This document shows positions 2,963-39,200 of a stretch of DNA of 64,000 nt, one piece after another; the stretch's first letter is position 1, and every line of letters starts with the position of its first letter. Below the pieces are notes generated by a model that worked only from the letters and a program-made list of their open reading frames with translations, was not told where the DNA came from and did no database searches. The stretch is taken from NCBI RefSeq assembly GCF_963921235.1, contig NC_086108.1, forward strand, positions 73,906,001-73,970,000, given 5' to 3'. This DNA comes from Mobula hypostoma. Its lineage: Eukaryota. A program made the position numbers and the translations under genes.

Positions 2963-4639
2963 GTTGTTCTTGGTTTAGGGTCCGTGACTTACTGCTGGTA
3001 ACAATCCGCTTAGATGACTGAATCGCTTTTAGATGACAGATTCGCTTCTTAGATTACAGGTGGGTAGCTGGTGCGTGCTGCTGTCCAGTCGAGGACCATA
3101 CAGAGCGCGCAGCAAGTCGCGCGCTCTACAGGGACGTGGGTCAAGTGTACTGTTTTGGATGAGGTTAAAATAAATTAGAGCAACGTGCGCCTTATTTACA
3201 TGTTATGACAGGTGCATTCACGTAAGTGCCAATGGGTCGGCGCCGTCCAGACATTTGGACCTGGCCCGCGGTCCGCCTGTTGGGGTTGTCTAGCTTAGAC
3301 CATCTGTTTACCTCATGTAACATGGCTCATCACTTCAACATATGTGACCTCACCACTGTACAGTGCAGTAACAAAAAGAATACAGGGTGTTAGCTCTGCA
3401 CCTCCATGTTTGCAAACTTTCTGACAATTTAACACATGAAGCTCAAATGGTTCGGTGTTTTAAAGTTAGGAGTTTTGTGCAAGTGTTTCCCTTGTTAAAA
3501 GAAAGTTTTAAATCTAGGTAAATTTTTTAGCTCTTAAATATATAATCTAATTTTGCAACTTGTTTTTAATCTTAAAGAAATTTTATAGGTCTGGAAATTA
3601 TTGCATACAACACTTTTTGACCTCACACAAAGGAAGTTAATCTAACTGTACATAAACAGGCTCTTATTTAAAGGTCACATTGTCTGACAATACCAGTGCC
3701 ACACATTCCTGAACAATCACCTCATGTTTAACACCCCATCCTATCTTCTCCTTCGATATTACCCCTTTTCTCTAAAATTCCAAAACCCCAGACTCCAAGG
3801 TGGATATTTGCTTACACACCACCCCCACCAAGTACTCCCCAACATTCCACATACTAACAGGTTTCCTCTGCAAGCTCCACAATGGTCTGTGTCTATATTG
3901 TAAGGCCAATACTTCTTACGCATGGTACTTGAGATCTTGTACTCAACAGAATACTGTTGTTGGGTCCCATGCAAAATACTGGATGTGCCGAGAACCCACT
4001 TCACACATGCCTCATTGATAAAACAAAGAGTATCTGAACCAAGGTCTGTTATAATCATGGATGCAGGAATGGCTTGACCAATGGTGATGCAGCACCTCCT
4101 CCATGCATGTTGTACTTCATGTAAACTAATTGAGACAATATGAAATTGTAACATATTTTGGATTTCAGATGTCACAAATAGAAGTATAAAGCTAGAGTCT
4201 TTCTTTGCCATTGCGCCCAAGAGACTCTGCTGCTTTAAACAGAGTGCATTAAAAAGATATATGCAATGTTTTTAACACCATAATGCATATTTGCATGTAG
4301 AGGTACTTAATAATTCTATATAAAGCAAAGGTAAATATTTATCATATGGTGAGATCTGTACAATCTAGCAATTATATTAAACAGCAACATGAAACTTCAG
4401 TTAATTTTTGTTATTGCTCTTTGTTGGAAATCCTAAACAAAGGGAAGTTGTGAATCTTTAGAAAGTTTTCACTTTGAAACGTTTAGGGTGTTTTTGCAGC
4501 AGAAGATCATCATTCATTGTGAAATGCCATATAAAACAATTGTCTTGGAGATAATACAAAAGGTCAGAATAAAATCTTGAAGCAGAAGGGAGCAAGCAAG
4601 TGGACTTGAATATAGTAATAAATCAAGCCTCCTTCCCCT

Positions 4640-12029: not shown

Positions 12030-14046
12030 AAACCAACAGTTGGCAATTAAAAAAGCCGTAAGGAAGGAAAGATGAAATATGAAGGTGAGCTAACCAATAA
12101 TATCAGAGGATACCAAAGGTTTTATTTCAGTTATATAGAGTGAAAGAGAGGCAGGAGTAGATATCGGACTATTGGAAAATTATGCTCGAGAGGTAGTAAT
12201 GGGGGGAAAGGAAATGGCAGATGAACTGAATAACATCTTACAACAGTCTTCACTGTGGAAGACACGAGCAGTTTGAGACCGTCAAAGGGGAGAATGAGTG
12301 TAGTTGTTACCATGAGGGAGAAGGTGCTTGGGAAGTTGTAAGGTTTGAAGGTAGGTATGTCATCTGGACCATATGGACTACATCCCAGGGAAGCGAAAAA
12401 GGTCACTAAAGAGATTGTGGAGGCATTAGTAAATGATTTTTCAATGATCACTTGTTCTGGAGTGGCTCCAGAGGACTGGAAAATTGCAAATGTTACTTCA
12501 CTCTTCAAGGAGGGAGGGAGGCAAAAGAAAGGAAATTATGGGCAAGTTAGTCTCAAATCATTAATTGGGAAGATGTTGGTGTCCATTGTTAAGAATGAGA
12601 TTTCAGCATTCTTAAAGAAACATGGTAAAATAGGCCAAAGTCAACATGGTTTCCTTGAGGAGAAATCTTGCCTGACAAATCTGTTGCACATCTACGAGAA
12701 AATAACAAGCAGAATAAACAAAGGAGAATCAGTGGATGTTGTGTACTTCGATTTTCAGAAGGCCTTTGAGAAGGTGTTGTACATAAGGCTGCTTAACAAG
12801 ATAAGAGTCCCTAGCATTACAGGAAAGATACTAGTAAAAAGTTACCATATCATTGGCTGATTGGCAGGAGGCAAAGGCTGGGAATAAAGAGAGGCCTTTC
12901 TAGTTGACTGCTGGTAACTTGTGGTATTCCACAGGGCTCAGTTTTGGGGCAGACTCTTTTTGCATGATATGTCAATGATTTGGATAATAGAATTACAAAC
13001 ACGATAAAATTTGCAGATGTTGGAAATCCAAGCAACACACACAAAATGCTGGAGGAACTCAGCAGGTCAGGCTGATAAAGGGTCTCATCCTGAAACGTTG
13101 ACTGTTTACTCTTTTCCATAGATGCTGCTTGGTCTGCTGAGTTCCCTCAGCACTTTGTGTGTGTTACTTGGATGATGAAATTGATGGCTTTGTGGACGAT
13201 ACTTAGATAGGTGCAGTGGCAGGTAGTTTTGAGGAAGCAGGGAGGCTGCAGAAGGACTTAGACTGTTGGGCCTTGTATGGTCTTGCATCTGGTAGAAGGA
13301 ATAAAGGTGCAGATTATTTTCTGAATGGGCAGAAAATTCAAAACTCAGAGGTGTGAAGGGACTTGGGAGACCTTGTGCAGAACTGCTTGAAGGTTAACTT
13401 ACAGGTTGAGTCAGTGGTAAGGAAGGCAAATGCAATGTTAGCATTCATTTCAAGAGGACTAGAATAAAAAAAAACAAGGATGCAATGCAGAGGTTTTACA
13501 AGGCATTACTGAGGTGAGGCTTCACTTGGAGAATTGAGTAGTTGTAGGTCCTTTATCTAAGAAACAAAGTACTGACAACGGAGAGGGCTCAAAGGAGGTT
13601 CACAAAAGTGATTCTGGGAATGAAAGGCTTATCGAATGAGGAGCGTTTGATAGTTCTGAGCCTGTACTCACTGGAACTTAGAAGAATGAGGGGAGATCTC
13701 ATTGAAACCTATTGAAAGAGTGGATGTGAAGACCATTTTCCCAGTAGTGGGGGAGTCTAGGACCAGAGAGCACAACCTCAGAAGAGAGGCATGTCCATTT
13801 AGAATGGAGATGAGGAGGAATTTCTGTAGCCACAGGATGATAAATCTGTGGAACTCGTTGCCACAGATGGCTGTGGAAGCCAAGTCATTAGGTATGTTCA
13901 TGTCAGAGGTTGACAGTTTCTTGATAGGTCAGGACGTAAAGGGATATGGGAAGAAGGCAGGAAAATGGGTCCACCACGATAAAATGGTGAAGCAGACTCG
14001 ATGGGCCGAATAGGCCAATTCTGGTCCTATGTCTTATAGTCTTATA
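12030..14046 (+). mobile_element. CR1 LINE, 5'-truncated, decayed RT
   Basis: PEDWKIANVTSLFKEG, SQHGF..KSCLTNLL, VDVVYFDFQKAF, RRNFCSHRMINLWNSLP. Tail cctatgtcttatagtctta. Confidence 0.93.
12995..13167. mobile_element. Penelope-type terminal-repeat fragment with fold-back inversion, inserted in CR1
   Basis: Inverted arms (caacacacacaaaatgctggaggaactcagcagg / ctgctgagttccctcagcactttgtgtgtg). Decayed hammerhead CTGATAA..GAAACGTT. Diverged ~15-bp TSD 12980-12994 / 13168-13182. Confidence 0.75.
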
Positions 14047-21677: not shown

Positions 21678-24398
21678 AAGAGCAAAAGAAATAGGAGCAA
21701 GAGTAGGCCGTCAGGCCCATCAAGCCTGCCCCGCCATTTAATAAGATCATGGCTGATCTGTCCGTAAACTCAGCTCCATCTATCTGCCTTTTCCCCATAA
21801 CCCTTGATTCCCTTACTATGCAAAAATCTATCTAACTGTATCTTAAATATATCTAGTGAAGAAGCCTCAACTGCTTCCCTGGGCAGAGAATTTCACAGAT
21901 TCACCACTCTCTGGGAAAAACAGTTCCTCCTCATCACCATCCTAAATATTCTCCCCTAAATCTTGAGGCAATGTCCCCTGGTTCGAGTCTCACTTACCAA
22001 TGGAAACTTTCCTACTTCTATCTTATCTATCCCTTTCAAAATTTTGGATGCTTCTATAAGGTCCCCTCTCATTCTTCTGAATTCCAGAGTATAGTCCCAG
22101 GCAACTCAATCTCTCCTCATAGGTTAACCCCTTCATCCCTGGAATCAACCTGGTGAACCTCCTCTGCACTGCCTCCAAAACCAATATATCCTTCCTCAAG
22201 TATGGAGACCAGAACTGCACACAGTACTCCAGGTGCAACCTCACCAGTACCCTATATAATTGCAGCATGACCTCTCTGCTCTTGAATTCAATTCCTCTAG
22301 CAATGAAGGCCAACATTCCATCTGCCTTCTTAATAACATGTTGTACCTGCAAGCCAACTTTTTGCGATTCATGAACAAGCACTCCCAAGTCCTTCTGCAC
22401 AACAGCACGCTGTAATCTTTCACCATTTAAATAATAATCTGCTCTTCTATTATTCCTTCCGAAGTGGATGATCTCGCATTTACCAATGTTGTATTCCATT
22501 TGCCAAACCTTGGCCCACTCACTTAACCTATCTATATCCCTCTGCAGACTCTCCACATCCTCTGTACAATTTGCTTTTCCACTCAGTTTAGTGTCATCAG
22601 CAAATTTTGCTACGCTACACTCAGTCCCCTCTTCCAAATCATCAATGTAACTGGTAAACAGCTGCAAGCCCAGCACCGACCCCTGCAGCACCCCACTCAC
22701 CACCGACTGCCAACTGGAGAAACACCCATTTAGACCAACTCTCTGCCTTCTGTCGGTTAACCAATCTACTATCCATGGCAATAAATTTCCTCCGACTCCA
22801 TGCATCCGTATCTTATTTATAAGTCTCTTGTGCGGCACCTTATCGAACACCTCCTGGAAATCCAAGTATACTACATCCACCTGTTCCCCTCTATCCACTG
22901 CACTTATTATGTCCTCAAGGAACTCAAGTAAGTTTGTCAAGCAGGACCTACCCTTTCTGAATCCATGCTGCGTCTGCCTAATGGGACCACTCCTTTCTAA
23001 ATGTTTCACTATTTCTTCCTTAATGACAGCTCCAAGCATTTTCCCCGACTACAGATCTTACGCTAACTGGCCTATAGTTGCCCGTCTTTTGTTTACATCC
23101 GTTTTTAAAAAGTGGCCTGACATTTGCTGTTTTCCAATCCGCCGGGACCTGCCCAGAGTCTAGAGATAATGATTACCAACGCGTCTACTCTAACCTCTGC
23201 CAATTCCCTCAGCACCCAGGGATGCATCCCATCAGGACCAGGGAACTTATCTACCATCAGGCCCTCTAGTTTGCTCATCACTATCTCTTTCGTGACAGTG
23301 ATTTTATCGAGGTCCTCACCTCCCATTTCGTCCATAACATCCTTCTTTGGCATATTAGACGTGTCCTCCACCGTGAAGACCAACACAGAATAGTCGTTCA
23401 ATGCCTCAGCCATTTCCTTATCACCCAATATCAATTTCCCCTTATCGTCTTCCAAGGGACCTTCACTGACTTTAGCCACCCTCTTCCACTTTATATATTT
23501 ATAAAAACTTTTGCTATCTGTTTTTATATTTTGTGCTAACTTACTTTCATACTCACCTTCCCTTATTTCTTGTTTAGTTGTTCTCTGTTGCTTTTTAAAG
23601 TTTTCCTAATCCTCCAGTTCCCACTATTCTTTGCAACTTTGTACACAAGCTTTTAATTTGATACTATCTTTTATTTCCTTAGTTATCCAAGGCTGGCTCT
23701 CCCCACACTTACTGTCCTTACTTTTGACTGGAAGATACTTTTGTTGAGCACTGTGAAAAATCTCTTTGAAAGTATTCCACTGTTCCTCAACTGTCCTACC
23801 AAATAGCCTATGTTCCCAATCCACATTAGCCAACTCCTCACTCATCCCGTTGTAATCTCCCTTGTTCAAGCATAATACACTGGTTTTAGATCTAACTATT
23901 TCATCCTCCATCTGAATGTGAAATTCAATCATACTATGATCATTCTTTTCCTTTACTATTCTTAATCTCTACCCAGATAGACTCAATATTCTGCTCTGAA
24001 GATCTTATATCATCACTCACAATCACCCTGATCTCATCCCTAATCAAGAGCGCCACCCCACCTCCTCTGCCTTCCTGTTAGCTTTCCGTATTACCTGATA
24101 CCCTTGGATATTTAATTCCCAGTCATCTCCACCTTGCAACCAGGTTTCTGAAATGGCCACTAAATCATATGCCCTGGTACTGATCTGTGCCTCAAGTTGA
24201 CTAAACTTGTTTCTAATACTACGGGCATTTAGATAAAGTGCCCTACACTCATTGTCCTTTTAGAATCTGGTGACCTATGTGATTTTTACTTTTATGCACT
24301 CTACTCTTAATCTTTTCTTCACTAACTCTAGCTTTGGTCTCTGCATCACTTCCCTCTTCTTTTTGTGTGGGTTCCATCCCCCTACCATATTAGTTTAG
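21678..24398 (-). mobile_element. CR1 LINE (end of ORF1, APE endonuclease pieces, RT, 3' UTR)
   Basis: YDLVAISETWLQ and NARS APE motifs near 24130-24230. ORFs 23624-23932, 23105-23479 and 22023-23039. Confidence 0.95.
22023..23039 (-). pseudogene. CR1 reverse transcriptase domain, 338-aa open segment
   Basis: QHGFRKGRSCLTNLLEF, VDVVYLDFQEVFDKVPH, SGVLQGSVLG, KFADDTKL, HLEYCVQFWSP. Confidence 0.95.
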
Positions 24399-29499: not shown

Positions 29500-30882
29500 A
29501 GTAATATTAAGTACTATTAAGTAATATACCACTTTTCAAATAAAAAACTTGATTACTTTGTAGATATATAGCCCAGTGCATGATTAAACAAAGATAACAA
29601 ACAGGATGCTAATGATCAATGACACGAGTTGAATGAACTAAGCTGATTAATTGAAACAGAACAGGTGTAGAAGGAATCAGTCCAGGTAAAAGTCAACCAA
29701 ACTAAAAGGTGAGGGTGTTGCAGATGCGACAGCTTAACCTTCAAAACATCAATTCTTACACCATGGCAAGAATGAGCATAGCAACAAGTCACAAGGCGGT
29801 CACCTGGCATCAGTAAGGTCTGTCCCACTCAGAAATAGCGCAATAGACAGGAGTTACAAGATGTACTGTCCAAGCTCTTCTGAAGAAGCACAAAGGTGGA
29901 AGACAAGAAGAGTGGTGGTCGTCCATGGAAACTGAGTGCTGCAGACGAGAAATACGTCAAACCAATGTTCCTTCTAAATCAGAAGTCCAGCACTGTTCTC
30001 AGCTCTGAACTCACAAAAACCACTGGAACCCAAGTTCACCGTTCTACAGTCTGGAGAATTCTTGTCAGAAGTGATCTGCATAGATGAATTGCTGCCAAAA
30101 AGCCATTCCTCCAAAGTGAAAACAAAGCTAAGAGACTCATTTACGCACAAAAACATAAGGACAGGGGTGCTGAACAATGGCAGCAAGCGCTCTGGACTGA
30201 CAAGTCAAAATTTGAAATTTTTGGCTCTAACAGAAGGCAGTTTGTCTATTGAAGAGCTGTATTGCACTACACAGATGAGTGCCTGTAGCCAACAGTTAAA
30301 GACAGCGGAGTTTCCCTGTGGGTTTGGGGCTGCGTTTCTACAAATGGAGTTGGTGATCTGGTCAGAATTAATGGAATTCTCAATGCTGAGAAGTACAGAT
30401 TCTCAACCATCATGCAATTCCTTGTCTTTGAGATGTCTGATCAGTCCCAACTTCATTCTGCAGGTTCTGTACCAGGACAATGACCCCAAACACATGGCCA
30501 TGGTCATGAAGAACTATCTTCAGTGAAAAGAGGAACAAGGACTTCTGCAACAGATGGGATGGTCTCCACAGATCCTCCTGATCTCAACATATTCGAGGCC
30601 ATCTGGGATTACCTGGCGAGACAGAAGCAAGCGAGACAGCAATTCTGCAGAAGAACTGTGGCAAGTTCTCCAAGATTTTCTTATAAAACTGCATGACAAA
30701 GTACCTAAGAAAAATACGCACTTTTAAAGGCAAAGGGTGATCACACCAAATACTGATTTGATTTAGTTTTTTTTTAATTGCTTACTGCTCTTTATGGTAG
30801 TTTTTTTTGATATTTAGAAACTTTCATTTCATTATTTTTGAAAGCATCTTCACTTTGCATATTTTTTTTTACATGTGCCTAA
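29500..30882 (+). mobile_element. Tc1-family transposon remnant; transposase pseudogene about 29763-30755
   Basis: SGGRPWKLSAADEKY, WTDKSKFEIFG, QDNDPKH, DLNIFEAIWDYL, KAKGDHTKY*. TIRs truncated. Confidence 0.9.
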
Positions 30883-31661
30883 GTAAATCCAAGAAACACA
30901 ACAGAATCAATGAAAGACTGCACCCAATTGGATGGACATACAACCAATGTGCAGAAAACAATAAATTATACAAATACAAAAGAAAACATAATAATAATAA
31001 ATAAATAAGCAATAAATATCAAGAACATGAGATGAAGAGTCCTTGAAAGTGAGTCCACAGGTAGTGGAACAATTCAATGATGGGGATGAGTGAAATTGAG
31101 TGAAGATATCCCCTTTGGTCTAGAGGCTAATGCATGAGGGGTAATAAATATTCCTAAACCTGGTGGTGTCAGTCCTGAGGCTTCTGTACCTTTTTCCTGA
31201 TGGCAGCAGGGAGAAGAGAGCATGGCCTGCACCACATCCACTACTTTTTGTAGGATTTCCCTTTGAAGGGCAATGGTATTTCCATAACAGGCTGTGATGC
31301 AACCAGACAATATACTCTCCACCACACATCTACAGAGGTTTGCCAAATCCTCATAAACTTCTAAAGAAATAGAGGCACTGTCATACTTTCTTTGTAAAGG
31401 TATGGCATGCTGGGCCCAGGCCACGTCCTCAAACGGTAATACATGCTGACCCACTTCACCCCAGTCCCCCGATGAAGCCTGGTTCGTGGACCTCTGGTTT
31501 CCTCCTCCTGGTCAATGATCATCTCCTTGGTCTTGTTGAAATTCACTGTGAGCTCATTGTTGTGGCACCACTCAGCTAGATTTTCAATCTCCCTCCTACA
31601 TGATTATTTGACGTCACCTTTGATTCAGTCAACTATATCGGTGTCATCAGCAAACTAAGTA

Positions 31662-33193
31662 CAGACAGTCTCCAGGTTACAAATATCTGACTTACGAACA
31701 ACTCGTACTCACAAACCGACTGCCATAAGGCCTATTATATTAAAAATTTGAGTTAAATACAATGGTTCGTAATAACGAATGCATGCACTACTCTGTGACG
31801 CTCATGAAAACATTGCGCAGCTTCAGCAGTTCATCGGCTCAAGGAAGGAGAACGCCGTCCGCCATTTTAAGTCAAATCACGTTGCCGTTAACACTGTGTT
31901 GAGTGTGTAACTTTGTACTTGGCTTAAATTTTTCTCTTATTTAGCCATAGTCATAGTCATACTTTATTGATCTCGGGGGAAATTGGTTTTCGTTACAGTT
32001 GCACCATAAATAATTAAATAGTAATAAAACCATAAATAATTAAATAGTAATATGTAAATTATACCAGGAAATAAGTCCAGGACCGGCCTATTGGCTCAGA
32101 GTGTCTGACCCACCAAGGGAGGAGTTGTAAAGTTTGATGGCCACAAGCCAGAATGACTTCCTATGACGCTCTGTGTTGCATCTCGGTGGAACAAGTCTCT
32201 GGCTGAATGTACTCCTGTGTCCAACCAGTACATTATGTAGTGGATGGGAGACATTGTCCAAGATGGCATGCAACGTGGACAACATCCTCTTTTCAGACAC
32301 CACCGTCAGAGAGTCCAGTTCCATCCCCACAACATCACTGGCCTTACGAATGAGTTTGTTGATTCTTTTGGTGTCTGCTACCCTCAGCCTGCTGCACCAG
32401 CACACAACAGCAAACATGATTGCACTGGCCACCACAGACTCGTAGAACATCCTCAGCATCATCCGGCAGGTGTTAAAGGACCTCAGTCTCCTCAGGAAAT
32501 AGGGATGGCTCTGACCCTTCTTGGAGACAGCCTCAGTGTTCTTTGATCAGTACAGTTTATTGTCAATTGTTCTTTGACCAGTCCAGTTTATTGTCAATGT
32601 TCTTTGACCAGTCCATGGTTACAAGTTCTTTACTCTTGTAACCATGCCTCCAAAGCATAAATCCGATGAAAGTGCTGGTGATGCATCAAAGAAAAAGGAA
32701 AACGATCATCATTGAAAATAAAGTGGAAATAATAAAGCATCGGAACAAGGTGAAACGCCATCGGTCATTGGAAAAGCGTTAGCCTACAGTCGGCCAACAA
32801 TCGGAACAATTTTAAAGGATAAAGTGATGATAGTATTTGAGGAAGAAGACTGGGTGGTAAAAACTCCAGAACCAAAAAATTTTTGATGAAAGAGTTAGCT
32901 GAAGCCTTTCATCTCATTGAAACAGGGATTGCAAAGTTAGAGGAGCAAGATCCTAATGCAGAGAGGTTCACCAAAGCTTACTGTACAGTTGCCAAGAGCC
33001 TCAGCTGATACAAGGCCAATCATGACGAGAAAAAGCTCTGCATAGGAAGGTAAAATATGTACTATATACTAAGACAAACATTTGACTAACTGATGCTAAA
33101 TAAGAACCGTATGTACCTGTTCCGACTTACCTACAAATTCGACTTAAAGACAGACTTAGGAACGGATCTCGTTCGTAACCCAGGGACTGCCTG
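31662..33193 (+). mobile_element. Tigger1-like transposon, internally deleted
   Basis: TIRs CAGACAGTCTCCAGGTTAC / GTAACCCAGGGACTGCCTG with TA TSD. HTH (IENKVEIIK..GETPSVIGKAL..TIGTILKDK) joined to C-terminus (ELAEAFHLIE..EQDPNAERF). Confidence 0.9.
31946..32614 (-). mobile_element. Second Rex1/Babar-type family, 3' fragment nested in Tigger
   Basis: ORF 32088-32462 MFYESVVASAIMFAVVCW..HPLH..RCNTERHRKSF; (ACTATG)n tail. Confidence 0.9.
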
Positions 33194-34659
33194 TATGGCA
33201 TTGGAGCTGTGCTTAGCCTTAAAATCGTAAGTATAAAGTGAGCAGAGCAGGGCGTTAAGCACAGAGTCTTGTGGTGCACCTCTGGTAATGGAAATTGTGG
33301 CAATTATGTTGTTGCCAATCTGAAATGACTGGGTTCTGCAAGTGAAGAAATCAAGGATCCAATTGCACAAGAAGTATTGAGGCCAAGGTCTTGAAGCTTT
33401 TCGATTAGCTTTGAGGGAATGACAGTACTGAATGCTGAGATGTAGTCAATAAAGAGCATGCTGATGTATGCATCTTCGCTGTCTAGACGTTCCAGGGTTG
33501 CATGAAGAGCCAAGGACGTGGCATCTGCTGTGGACCTTGTTGTGACAGTATGCAAATTGGGGAGGATCCAAGCTACTCCCCAGGCAGGATTTGATGTTTC
33601 GTCACCAGCCTCTCAAAACACTTCATCACAGTGGATGCAAGTGCTACTGGATGATAGTCATTCGGGCAGTTTACCACATTCTTCTTGGGCATTGGTATAA
33701 TTGAAGCCTGCTTGAAGCTGGTGGGTATCTCAGGCTGCTGACACAAGCGGTTAAAGGTATTGGTGAACACTCCAGCCAGTTGATCAGTACAGGTCTTTAG
33801 TACTTGGTGAGGTATCCCAGCTGGGCCGGATGCTTCTGTGGGTTCACTCTCCAGAAGGATGCTCTCATGTCACCTTAGAGACTAATATCACAGGGTCTTC
33901 ATGGGCTGTGGGAGTTTGTGAAGGTTCTTTCATGTTTTGACAGTCAAATCAAGCATGGACAGCATTGAACTCATCTGGGAGCAAAGCTTTATTGTCATCC
34001 ATGTCATTTAGTTTCACTTTGTAAGAGTTTATAGCATTCAAGCCCTACCATAGCTATCGAACATCCTTCAATGATTAAAGATTTGAAAGAGAAACAGATA
34101 CCCAGCTAATCATGTGTACACATTATGAACTTCCAAAAATGTTGCTTCACAAACTGTTGCCAGAATGGTTCTGCAATAGTTCACGGTAGTGGAAACTCTT
34201 GGAAGAGATTTAGCCTATTCTTCAAAAGTAAACTTTACCTTAACTAAGCTGTGAAAACTTATGATCCCGAACAGTGCAATAACTTCAACTAAAGATTACG
34301 ACTGAAGTACTAAACGGAATTGAAAATAAATAACATTATCTGTTCTACCACTGATTGTACAACACCACATTTCACAAATGCCGACACACGAATATATTAC
34401 TTAGATTGGAATACTGCATAAATGATTCACGGCATTACACATTTCTTATCAACAGCTGAAACCAATTCAATGACAGAAAATAGATAAAAATGCAGAACTG
34501 GAACCAAATAAGAAATATTTATACATCTCTCACAACTTCAGAATATCTGCATAGTTTTTATAATCAACTAATTATTTTTAATAAGTAGATTTGTTGTTGT
34601 CATTCAGTAAAATACAATTTGCTCAAGATCTCAGAAACATGTGCATTGCCTCAAAAGAC

Positions 34660-34995
34660 ACTAGCCGTGGAGATTAGTTGTCGGGGATTCGTAGCCCATT
34701 CCTTATTTAGAGCCTTCAGCATTTTGGGCATCGAGGGAGAGAGGAAGAGAGGAAGAGGACAGCCATCCACAGTACCACCGATGCGGCAGAGAGGGCCTCA
34801 AGATGGCTGTGGCTCAAAAGAGCGGAGCCATGGAGTCACAGGTAGCTAGCCATCTGGACACAAGCTGGGGTCTGATCAGTCCCGGCTGGGTCACCCGGAA
34901 GAGGTTGTATGATGTTGAAAGACCAGAAACACCCGATGATTCCAGGAACATCACTGAAGATGTGTCCAGAAGCATCAATAGATGTATGTACACAG
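34660..34995 (+). mobile_element. 3' fragment of a second, divergent HERO-like RLE retrotransposon
   Basis: AVEISCRGFVAHSLFRAFSILGIEG...AERASRWLWLKR..* parallels the C-terminus of 6176-7835 (PVEI..AERASC*IW). Stop at 34843-34845. Confidence 0.85.
34853..34970 (+). ncRNA. Putative permuted/pseudoknotted hammerhead-like RNA, HERO 3' UTR, copy 2
   Basis: 10-bp closing stem TCTGGACACA/TGTGTCCAGA, GTA 34907-34909, stem I TGATGTT/AACATCA, CTGAAGA 34954-34960, GAAA 34926-34929, stem II GGGTC/GACCA, stem III GGTTG/CACCC. Confidence 0.65.
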
Positions 34996-35597
34996 CAATT
35001 AACACTGGCAACCCACCAGCAGAACTAGCCTGTTTTTCCAAACATTGTACCTTTGCTGCTGAGAATGCAACAATTTATCTGAAGGTGAGCTCTCCAAAAG
35101 TACAGGAATACCACATTGAAACATCAGCCCAGATTGTGCATTTTATTCCTGTAGAGATCTGAAAAAAAAAATTACCTGTGAGCCAAGGCTGATAACAGCT
35201 TTGAATTCATCAGGTGAAATGCAACATTGGCAAGATCCATGTAAATTGGCTTCTGCAAGTCGATGGGCCAAATGGTCTAATTCTGATACAGGGGCTTATA
35301 GTATTATACATATTGTAAATTATAACAATGCCTTGGTTGTGAAACATTAATCCATAGATGCATTTCAAACTTCAGGATAACATAGCATTGTGTATTTGTC
35401 TACTTAAGAAGGCACTGAGAAGTACCATGACAACTAATCCTCATCTAAAGAACCCAGACAGAACAGAACATAAATCTTGTATACAATTCATCTAGCTTGT
35501 TAGACAATAACCAAGATCTGCCTCATCTAGTTTATGCACTGATCTCCTTGTCTCTTAATTCCTTTCATGACTTGACCCAATCTCTATGAATTTCAAC

Positions 35598-35685
35598 CTC
35601 GGCCCAAAACTCTGACTGTTTACTCTTTTCCATAGATGCTACCTGTCCTGCTGAGTTTCTCTAGCATTTTGTGTGTGTTGCTTCA
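35598..35685 (+). mobile_element. Penelope-type terminal-repeat fragment
   Basis: ctcggcccaaaactctgactgtttactcttttccatagatgct...gcattttgtgtgtgttgc. Confidence 0.75.
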
Positions 35686-35699
35686 GTGCACTCAACTGA

Positions 35700-36270
35700 G
35701 CACTAATTACTGCTTCGGATGCAGAAGTCCAAAGATTCATTATCTAAATAAGGAAACTTTTCCTGATCTTGGCCCTAACTGGTCAACCCTCATCATGTAC
35801 TAACAATTACTGGTTCTAGTCTGAGGAAGTAGCCTTTCAACATTCAACTTCTGGATCCCTCTCAAGTTCAATTCAGTGAGCACCTCCAATTCTTCTAAAC
35901 TTCACTCATTTTAGATCCATCCTACTGGAAAGATCCTCAGAAAACCCAAGAAATCCTCCAGAAAAAGCACAGAAAATTGCACTTTATTTCAAACATGGTA
36001 TCACCAAAGGCCTGCGCAGTTGCAACAAATCTTTCTTTCTCTTGTTCTCTACCTATATACTGTCGAGGACAACATAGTATTTGCCTTCCAGATTTCCTTC
36101 TGCATTTTATTTTCCAGCAAACCTAGATTCTTCTGGACTGCCATTTCCTAGTTTCCATACAATCTAAAAAGCTTAATTATTCCTATCAAACAGTAAGCTC
36201 ACATTTTCCCATATTAAACTCCACTCACTTACTGCCCATATCCACTTTCTGTCCTCCTCAAAGCTCACTG
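35700..36270 (-). mobile_element. Very old CR1 remnant
   Basis: Patchy similarity to the antisense CR1 RT C-terminus (tcaccaaaggcctgcgcagttgcaaca, ctcacattttcccatattaaactcc). Confidence 0.4.
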
Positions 36271-36298
36271 CTCTTCATTACTTCCAGGGCACCTAGTC

Positions 36299-39200
36299 AT
36301 GACTCGAGTAGCAGCAGTACTCTCAATGGATACAATTAAATATTCCCATTTCAGCCTGTTACAGCTGAAAAGCACAACTGCTTCCAAGGTCAGTACAGTC
36401 AACAAAGATGTCTTAATGCATTTAAAGGAACTATTGCTGCTTAAAACCGATGCAAACAACACCGATTGTGGTCAGAAGGACCCACAGAGGACACCTCAGA
36501 AGAACCATGGGTGTAGCTCGGGATTACAAGTACATTTAAGGAAAAGGGGTTTTAAGCTGCCTATACCGACTATCTTGCTGGCAAATGTGCAGTGTCTGGA
36601 GAATAAAATTGATGATCTCAGAGCCAGGGTGCTGAATCGGAAGGACAAGAGGGCCACGTGTGTCCTTTGTTTCACGGAATCCTGGTTAGCCCCTTCCGTG
36701 CTGGATGCAGCGATCCAGATCGACGGGTTTACTATACACTGTCAGAATAAATCTATGGAGTCTCTTAAAAGCAGAGGTGGAGGAGTATGCCTCATGATCA
36801 ACTCTTCTTGGTGCACTAATATATCAGTGCTGTCCCAATTCCGCTCACCAGACCTAGAGTATCTAGCAGTAAAGTGCCGTCCTTTTTACCTACCACGGGA
36901 GTTCTCTGGGGTCATTTTGGTAACAGTTTACATTCCACCTCAGGTCAATGTCAAGCAGGCTTTAGATGATCTGAGTAATGGGATCAACATGCACGAAACA
37001 GTGCACCCTAATGCTTTCACCATCGTTTTGGGAGATTTTAACCAGGCCAGTCTGAAAAGAAAAATCACTGAGTAACTACCATCAACAGATCACTTGCAAT
37101 ACCAGAGGAAACAACACACTGGACCATTGCTACACCACCATCAAGAATGCCTACCGAGCTATTCCATGCCCTCACTTCCGCAAGTCTGATCACCTAGCTG
37201 TACTCCTACTCCCTGAGTATAAGCAGAGACAGAAAACTGCAGCAACAGCAGTGAGGACCAAGAAGGTATGGACAATGGAAGCACAGGAGCGCCTACAGGA
37301 CTGCTCTGAATTGGTGGACTGGACTGCATTCAGGGATTCATCGTCGAACCTGGATGAGTATGCTGCAGTTGTTACCAACTTCATTAAAACCTGTGTGGAT
37401 GAACGTGTGCCCATAAAGACTTACTGTACATTCCCAAACCAAAAGCCGTGGATGAAGCAGGAACTACGTGGTCTGCTGAAGGCTAGATCTGTGGCATTCA
37501 AGTCTGGCAACCCAGGCCTGTACCAGAAAACTAGGTGTAATTTATGGAGGGCTATTTCAAGGGCACAGAGACAATTTCGAATGAGGTTGGAGGCGACATC
37601 AAATGCACAGCAACTCTGGCAGGGCCTGCAAGACATTACTTCCTAAAAAGTAAAACCCAATAGCATGAATAGCAGCGATGCTTCACTACCCAATGAACTC
37701 AACGCCTTCTACGCACACTTTGAAAGGGAGAACATAACTACAGCTGTGAAGACCCCTGCTGCACCTGATGACCCTGTGATCTCTGTCTTAGAGGCTACTG
37801 TTAGGCTGTCTTTAGAGAGAGTGAATCCTCGCAAGGTGGAAGGTCCTGATGAAGTATCTGGTAAGACACTGAACATCTGTGCCAACCGACTGGCAGGAAT
37901 ATTCAAGGACATTTTCAACCTCTCATTGCTACAGGCAGAAGTTCCCACTTACTTCAAAAAGGCAACAATTATACTAAGAAGAATAATGTGGTCTGCTTTA
38001 ATGACTATCACCCGGTAGCACTCACATGGATCGTGATGAAATGCTTTGAGAGGTTGGTCATGAGTACACTGAACTCCTGCCTCTGCAAGGACCTGGACCC
38101 ATTGCAATTTGCCTATCGCCACAATAGGTCAACAGCAGACGCAAGCTCAATGGCTCTCCTCACAGCTTTAAACCACCTGGACAACACAAACACCTACGTC
38201 AGGATGCTGTTCATCGACTATAACTCAGCATTTAATACCACCATTCCACAATCCTGATTGAGAAGTTGCAGAACCTGAGCCTCTGTACCTCCTTCTACAA
38301 TTGGATCCTTGACTTCCTAACCAGAAGACCACAATCTGTGCGGATTGGTGATAACATATCCTCCTCGCTGACAATCAACACTGCCACACCTCAGGGGTGT
38401 ATGCTTAGCCCACTGCTCTACTCTCCATGTACACTGACTGTGTGGCTAGGAATAGCTCAAATACCATCTATAAATTTGCTGATGATACAACCATTGTTGG
38501 TAGTATCTCAGGTGGTGATGAGAGAGCATACAGCAGTGAGGTATGCCAACTAGCGGAGTGGTGCCACAGCAACAACCTGGCACTCAACGTCAGTAAGACG
38601 AAAGAGCTGATTGTGGACTTCAGGAAGGGTAAGATGAAGGAACACACACCAATCCTCATAGAGGGATCAGAAGTGGAGAGAGTGAGTAGTTTCAAGTTCC
38701 TGGGTGTCAAGATCTCTGAGGATCTAATCTGGTCCCAACATATCGAGGTAATTATAAAGAAGTCAAGACAGCAGCTATACTCTATTAGGAGTTTGAAGAG
38801 ATTTGGCATGTCAACAAATACACTCAAAATCTTCTACAGATGTACTGCGGAGAGCATTCTGACAGGCTGCATCACTGTCTGGAAGGGAGGGACTACTGCA
38901 GAGAACCGAAAGAAGCTACAGAGGGTTGTAAATCTAGTCAGCTCCATCTTGAGTACTAGCCTACAAAGTACACAGGACATCTTCAGGAAGCGGTGTCTCA
39001 GAAAGGCAGTGTCCATTAATAAGGACCTCCAGCACCCAGGACATGCTCTTTTCTCACTGTTACCATCAGGTAGGAGGTACAGAAGCCTGAAGGTACACAC
39101 TCAGTGATTCAGGAAGCTTCTTCCCCTCTGCCATCTGATTTCTAGATGGACATTGAATCTTTGGACACTACCTTACTTTTTTAAAAATATACATTATTTC

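Follow-up and report, generated by a model that had tools for sequence, protein, structure and literature searches.

An interrupted hammerhead-like motif in the 3' UTR of R2-like non-LTR retrotransposons and its possible part in a circular RNA template

The element and its copy in the window

The window, by which we mean the whole stretch of 64,000 nucleotides of Mobula hypostoma DNA analysed here, carries a short piece of a non-LTR retrotransposon encoding a reverse transcriptase (RT) and a restriction-like endonuclease (RLE). The original prediction, made from the sequence of this stretch, had placed a rearranged hammerhead-like RNA directly after the stop codon of such an element, and the motif does lie in a retrotransposon 3' UTR, although the copy at this site comprises just the last ~330 nt (34667-34996) of a unit of ~3620 nt. 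The features of the copy are as follows.

34667..34996, + strand: 5'-truncated copy of the RT and RLE non-LTR retrotransposon, with a single motif, no upstream repeat and no poly(A) tail
34667..34845, + strand: frameshifted C-terminal remnant of the element ORF, ending in the stop codon TAG (34843-34845)
34971..34996, + strand: tail up to the fixed 3' end of insertions, continuing directly into the 5' UTR in tandem loci

A 311-nt query yielded 1120 candidates in the 3.48-Gb genome, 40 of which were scored, and the element is dispersed. An exact pattern of the core had 2105 genome matches as against 0 for a control pattern. With a query from the 5' region 612 candidates were obtained, compared with the 1120 for the 3' query, and many copies reach the 5' region. 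Copies stop at one fixed base, lack a poly(A) tail and are flanked by A-rich sequence in only one of 30 cases.

Longer copies carry one ORF in which motifs read from the sequence, as these are generally defined, indicate an RT followed by a CCHC knuckle and then by a PD-(D/E)xK endonuclease. The best matches of the RT among solved structures are R2 proteins (E 7e-17); the C-terminal domain had no match among solved structures. Named homologs come from fishes and lancelet, and the protein is not Penelope-like, lacking the telomerase-like RT with a GIY-YIG endonuclease. The element may belong to the HERO clade, a label consistent with the hosts and the dispersed insertion. HERO elements are described as RLE-encoding non-LTR elements of fish, lancelet and sea urchin that are mostly not site-specific (PMC4640811, PMC9004415).

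Structure of the motif

The motif occupies positions 34853-34970, and every strand named in the original prediction was located there. Its parts, numbered according to hammerhead convention, are listed below.

34853..34862, + strand: 5' strand of helix P0, pairing with 34961-70 right after A9; 10/10 pairs in this copy
34863..34887, + strand: hairpin H, directly adjoining P0 upstream and G10.1 downstream, without spacer bases
34873..34878, + strand: self-complementary hexamer at the tip of H, a candidate kissing or dimer site
34888..34892, + strand: stem II strand 10.1-10.5, supplied from upstream (G10.1 is 34888); pairs with 34921-25, 4/5 here
34894..34900, + strand: 5' strand of extra stem X, pairing with 34940-46 (6/7 here); the equivalent of a stem I/II interaction helix
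34903..34909, + strand: stem III strand 16.x and GUA triplet; 34903-08 pairs with 34929-34 (5/6), predicted cut after N17 (A34909)
34910..34916, + strand: stem I strand 1.x, pairing with 34947-53 (7/7); 5' end of the predicted 3' product
34921..34934, + strand: stem II strand 11.x (34921-25), G12-A13-A14-A15.1 (34926-29) and stem III strand 15.x
34940..34953, + strand: 3' strand of stem X and stem I strand 2.x
34954..34960, + strand: core C3-U4-G5-A6-N7-G8-A9 (CUGAAGA)
34961..34970, + strand: 3' strand of P0, beginning one base past A9

For stem II the prediction needs a correction, as G10.1 is mismatched to A34925, a position that is C in 51 of 61 family copies. Because of this A opposite G10.1, the window's own copy is probably impaired as the predicted ribozyme.

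Taken singly, the window stretch is unremarkable in folding (z = -1.21), and Rfam models detected no hammerhead at E<=10 in the region 30000-37000 and none at gathering score in nine related loci.

Conservation and covariation across relatives

Relatives were gathered by protein similarity alone, giving 79 metagenome loci (43-86% identity) together with further families from the ray's own genome. Their 3' UTRs were parsed for five helices, arranged as in the prediction, and the score took no account of core letters. With this helix-only parse, exact matches to both CUGANGA and GAAA were recovered in 49 of the 82 UTRs of testable length, and in 44 of 72 metagenome loci, as against 0/82 for shuffled sequences; scores of at least 70 were reached by 50/82 real UTRs, the shuffled maximum being 69.

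Fifty-four parses were in register, 28 of the 82 UTRs being out of register and omitted, and 33 representatives sharing <80% identity (mean 49%) were counted. Rows entering the core counts had at most one mismatch per block, G16.2 and a pyrimidine at 16.1, such that N7, N17 and the pair 10.1:11.1 are the unconstrained observations. Under this filter the core letters were present in 33/33 representatives save for C3 (32/33), and U16.1:A15.1 and G16.2:C15.2 were each found in 33/33. All four bases occur at N7 (T16, C7, A7, G3), while N17 is C, U or A (21, 20 and 13 of the 54 parses) and never G. U occupies N17 in 12 of the 33 representatives, a frequency that counts against a working ribozyme, GUU being a slow triplet in ordinary hammerheads. 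The first stem II pair, G10.1:C11.1, formed with the upstream strand, is kept in 29/33 representatives and in 25 of 28 alignment rows.

Since the helix parse favours pairing, the count was redone on a sequence-only MAFFT alignment of 28 rows, from which five poorly parsed representatives and one own-genome row were excluded. Of its helix cells 88.1% were paired, compared with 60.7% after shuffling and 35-43% in slid registers. Double-sided changes occurred in 35/40 pairs and all six helices covary. Helix P0 showed them in 10/10 pairs (88.8% paired) and stem I in 5/5 (91.4%); stem II with its upstream strand was 92.1% paired, and in stem X, 78% paired, compensatory changes were seen in 4/6 pairs. 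RNAalifold, unaided, predicted P0, H and stem II, abutting one another. A palindromic 6-mer at the tip of H was present in 23/32 representatives, where 4.9 were expected, and took the form of four different hexamers.

By strict or relaxed pattern the motif was recognised in 57 of the 69 metagenome loci with a UTR of at least 140 nt, spread across the protein tree (a quick tree of 144 columns); 12/69 lacked it by these patterns, most of them decayed or cut as judged by eye, and ten further UTRs were too short. Four loci (L091, L097, L104 and L108) have related ORFs with, by eye, no recognisable motif after the stop codon. Two of these, L091 and L108, are sisters and possibly represent a lineage in which the motif was lost or replaced.

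The predicted rearranged hammerhead core is thereby borne out, both in its letters and in the covariation of its helices; it is real and deeply conserved. That at least some family members self-cleave is likely.

Relationship to known hammerhead types

The blocks of the motif follow the order S-G-C with crossing stems, unlike types I-III (CGS, GSC and SCG), which lack a core pseudoknot. As had been predicted, the order is no circular permutation of these and the core chain is opened between A9 and G10.1. Eckert et al. (2023) validated a non-circularly permuted hammerhead, type SGC, represented by HRIMA-1 and a variant (PMC10085705). Its examples derive from a screen of hairpin-ribozyme-associated metatranscriptomes and from pattern searches, with no retroelement host found in the sections consulted. 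The motif shares with type SGC the S, G, C order, a short linker between strands of stems I and II, an extra helix joining the far sides of these stems and a full core. It differs in that the 10.x strand precedes block S, and block C is not intact; no stem II strand directly follows CUGANGA. Instead, A9 runs into P0, rather than to G10.1 directly or via one or two bases. In most representatives P0, H and G10.1 abut without a spacer, and the geometry we infer is a four-way helix junction at the A9/G10.1 step, in which P0 and H would be stacked.

The original prediction had left it open whether this arrangement was among those reported. Its order and its stem I-II linker were already known from type SGC; what is new, as read from the sequences, is the broken block C with its putative four-way junction, and this wiring lies outside the six published block orders. 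According to PMC10085705, CUGAnGA is never separated from its stems by more than 1-2 bases in known alignments; the blocks are assumed there to be uninterruptible and form the basis of searches. Hammerheads with a single base inserted between positions 9 and 10.1 occur naturally in Penelope elements (PMC4209133), and other short core inserts are shown in PMC3088659, the consulted parts of which contain no helix at the A9/G10.1 step. We found no report of a hammerhead in HERO or other RLE elements, of a helix between A9 and G10.1, or of activity with a helix junction at that step, in a literature search that covered neither subscription journals nor Repbase Reports.

Two analogies may be drawn. 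The hairpin ribozyme has a natural four-way junction, and a perfect four-helix junction organises the ribozyme; in the element motif the junction interrupts the catalytic core itself. Likewise, the retroviral dimer initiation site has a possible counterpart in the palindromic hexamer loop at the tip of H, which may dimerise RNA.

Head-to-tail copies in the genome

In 14 of 30 loci obtained with the 5'-region query, the 5' UTR is immediately preceded by a 3' end of the element itself. This junction of 3' end and 5' UTR is fixed, with at least 140 matches genome-wide. With a pattern allowing gaps, 83 of the 100 matches listed (of 125) had identical spacing and, by eye, none of those listed had extra bases between intact ends. 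Eighty loci were fetched, of which 73 had measurable overshoots of 27-1890 nt and five more had shorter ones; none extended to a full unit in a check that covered ~3 kb upstream for 60/80 loci and less for most others. The whole motif is contained in 49/78 overshoots, and of 38 loci whose overshoot is long, 19 have both cores intact. The element thus has the head-to-tail copies, longer than one unit and with a ribozyme motif in each repeat, that are characteristic of retrozymes and Penelope-like elements. No upstream flank was common to any of 71 overshoot loci, which have ragged 5' ends and lie in long contigs. Linear read-through from tandem masters is disfavoured by the lack of a shared flank in these 71 loci and of a full second unit in the stretches fetched.

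The 5' ends of copies do not accumulate at the predicted cut, where a pattern used without a matched control had two matches, both resembling small deletions; one of 78 overshoots starts exactly at 87 nt and 57/78 are longer. Of 22 loci extending as far as the junction region, six begin, by eye, within ~10 nt of the junction, and such starts could reflect stalling once the first round is completed or a genuine 5' end of the RNA. Four contig sets from sequencing runs, a kind of data that says little on this point, showed neither a go-back joint nor a start/end site.

The two repeats of a locus tend to share variants. Over 61 loci (19 of the 80 tandem loci lacked one usable repeat and were left out), 104 non-consensus alleles were common to both repeats, compared with 30.8+-5.9 in random pairings; the figures were 68 against 15.7+-4.4 for non-CpG alleles only and 86 against 26.6 when the longest locus was removed. 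A minor allele downstream was accompanied by one upstream in 37/85 cases, as against 29/906 otherwise, from which the share copied from the same template is estimated at 0.42. At site 3602 the repeats disagree in 12/59 cases, and those of L161, L201 and L213 differ at linked sites.

Fourteen internally deleted units were listed, the breakpoints of which all differ between loci. In L183 and L213 the same internal-deletion junction occurs in both the unit and the overshoot, L229 is compatible with a repeated deletion, L163 is ambiguous and in L225 the upstream repeat lacks the deletion. Units of 524-1070 nt that keep both ends (L157, L162-L164, L183, L192, L193, L210, L213, L215, L220, L229 and L232) have left breakpoints mostly at 556-709 and right breakpoints at 3254-3400 of the unit, and similar skips occur in contigs of other organisms. 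These units may be retrozyme- or SIDE-like derivatives. Splicing was rejected as their origin, the junctions not being splice-like.

A head-to-tail layout was also seen in 18/79 metagenome loci. In 13 of these the tail is followed by a 5' UTR signature, the profile for which had been seeded with five of the 13, and in the other five a tail precedes the 5' UTR; assembly collapse may have contributed.

Full units, 44 of which were compared among L156-L235, are mosaics of haplotypes at all distances, with 62-82% four-gamete pairs and no clonal subfamilies, and several of their balanced polymorphisms are A/G or T/C outside CpG. Mosaicism without clonal subfamilies is unusual for a LINE. No decay of linkage disequilibrium with distance was detected in these units (rho 0.04, P 0.84), and it is the mosaicism that suggests recombination.

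Zebulon, an element of pufferfish, was reportedly found by Bouneau et al. in 2003 to have a partial tandem structure. The partial-tandem layout in itself is therefore probably already known; a ribozyme or circular template in HERO or Zebulon elements was not described in the literature searched.

A circular RNA template and its alternatives

The simplest reading of the overshoots is that reverse transcription proceeded more than once round a sealed circle. We moderately favour the view that the motif is a working type-SGC-like hammerhead with a four-way junction and that the element replicates via circular RNA, along the following lines. A locus with an overshoot long enough to hold the whole motif would be transcribed from upstream and, as core conservation suggests, both motifs would be cut after N17, freeing a unit-length RNA. 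Its ends would re-pair through P0, II, X and III (~27 bp), pairings indicated by covariation, and thereby rebuild the core, in which case ligation should be favoured; joining could occur through the reverse reaction or by a host ligase. Target-primed reverse transcription by the element protein would then begin at one constant position inside the RNA, 87 nt beyond the cut. Most runs would end early, as in the window copy, and some would cross the fixed junction, adding a second, truncated tail upstream; such products are observed, and the circle is their presumed template. Copies that overshoot by at least 145 nt hold two motifs and would be the next parents. With less support, the palindromic loop of H may pair two RNAs and so allow template switching.

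The original prediction had proposed 3'-end processing, re-ligation or multimer resolution as possible roles of a cut after 34909. The overshoots fit the latter two, whereas simple processing is not supported, as copies continue 87 nt past the site and show no pile-up there. Absence of a pile-up is as expected for a sealed template, and a cut inside the template need not be fatal, because the overshoots suggest a re-sealed circle as the template. Nevertheless, a single circle predicts near-full concordance between repeats, and the lower estimate obtained means that the model needs template switching or gene conversion in addition. About half concordance would be predicted for a dimer in which switching is frequent; gene conversion and recurrent mutation are alternatives. 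A bolder proposal, to which we assign somewhat less than an even chance, is that a whole clade of autonomous R2-like LINEs replicates by rolling-circle target-primed reverse transcription. The template would be a circular RNA, possibly a dimer, cut and re-sealed by the four-way-junction-interrupted hammerhead, the interlocked ends of which would serve as a clamp for circularisation. Pairing of two genomes through the palindromic loop would drive recombination as in retroviruses, and new lineages would be founded only by overshoots exceeding one ribozyme length.

Many of these observations could also be accommodated without catalysis, if a hammerhead-like fold of silent or negligible activity were kept as a site bound by the element protein on a linear RNA and the RT jumped precisely from the 5' end to the 3' end of the same or a paired RNA. 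End-to-end template jumping is known for the R2 RT, A9 is held in P0 unlinked to G10.1, and all copies span the cut site uncut; starts near the junction are what a real RNA 5' end would give, and partial concordance fits a mixture of same and other RNAs. Such a fold, which we consider unlikely, leaves unexplained the retention of G8, G12 and G10.1:C11.1, the free N7 and the exclusion of G from N17 at 49% mean identity, together with a stem II that is complete and covaries via its upstream strand. R2 jumps use non-templated bases and the junctions here have none added, and nothing else was found that defines the tail-less 3' end. Slightly less probable again is an active ribozyme without a circle, trimming read-through at the upstream repeat only and leaving an 87-nt terminal redundancy for strand transfer, or limiting RNA levels, while a protein-protected uncut tail provides the template. 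It draws on the same core conservation and covariation, on the frequent template exchange that the mosaic haplotypes show and on the precedent of the R2 5' ribozyme, which frees the element from its co-transcript (PMC6765202). It predicts, however, a pile-up at 87 nt, which is not seen, and requires that of two identical motifs only the one at the upstream end be cut.

More conservative readings of the motif fare worse. If the motif were an ordinary type-SGC hammerhead, stem II would be formed by the strand that follows A9, with 0-2 inserted bases, and P0 would act as an off-switch. Such a hammerhead would match the block order and short linker, and in the window family a +1 register could form 4/5 pairs. 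Across relatives, however, the post-A9 strand pairs at only 44%, 55% and 38% for offsets 0, +1 and +2, compared with 92-97% for the upstream strand, and at 55.7% against 49.2% shuffled on the MAFFT alignment; stem II formation by this strand was consequently rejected, and we regard the reading as very improbable. Chance resemblance, with which the weak single-sequence folding and the lack of an Rfam match would agree, is countered by the failure to recover the core from any shuffled UTR, and tandems produced by assembly error or DNA-level duplication by overshoots that lie in long contigs, have flanks of their own and are ragged at the 5' end, as RT products are; we give these explanations almost no weight.

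Comparison with other mobile elements

The closest parallels to the favoured circular template lie in Penelope-like elements and retrozymes, for the former of which such a model was proposed earlier (PMC4209133). These carry a hammerhead in terminal direct repeats and form head-to-tail, more-than-unit copies (PMC4209133; bioRxiv 10.64898/2026.07.22.740005), and they resemble the present element further in the proposed circular RNA template, a natural insert at 9/10.1, palindromic loops and short non-autonomous derivatives. They differ in having type-I or minimal motifs, an insert of one base, and a telomerase-like RT with GIY-YIG or non-coding repeats, whereas the element has an R2-like RT, a C-terminal restriction-like endonuclease and a two-helix insert. 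R2 itself, like L1Tc and RTE, offers a related RT and a ribozyme that frees the element from a longer transcript; those ribozymes are, in contrast, of the HDV-like class, at the 5' end and associated with a linear template. No Rfam match to an HDV-like ribozyme was found in two full tandem loci of the element.

If the favoured reading is correct, the motif would break the stated rule that hammerhead blocks are uninterruptible, and would constitute a natural ribozyme class missed by Rfam and descriptor searches, with thousands of copies per genome in distant hosts. It would also offer a testable account of how LINE insertions come to be partially tandem and without a tail, and replication through circular RNA would no longer be confined to Penelope-like elements and retrozymes but would include R2-like LINEs. 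With its products clamped by ~27 bp, the ribozyme could serve as a small module for self-circularisation, and R2-like proteins able to copy a circle would be relevant to RNA-templated gene insertion.

Other features of the element and the window

No relatives of the element were found in a viral collection, and among prokaryote genomes there were only two short fragments without a UTR, on marine bacterial assembly scaffolds (L113, L114), which are probably host contamination. The ray genome also contains one or more older families bearing this motif (L116, L118, L121-L125). Target-site duplications are limited to six weak candidates among 58 loci. Elsewhere in the window, broken pieces of other retroelements with an APE-type endonuclease and RT lie at 36218-39107 (+), 22023-23048 (-), 33304-33869 (-) and 12342-12860 (+).

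The 5' UTR of the element (L176:3002-3140; metagenome loci L042, L052, L078, L086 and L099) contains short hairpins arranged in a row; their loops are rich in purines and UGAC stands before each hairpin. The row is kept in distant families (folding z -1.6) and could be a protein-binding array or a signal for cap-independent translation.
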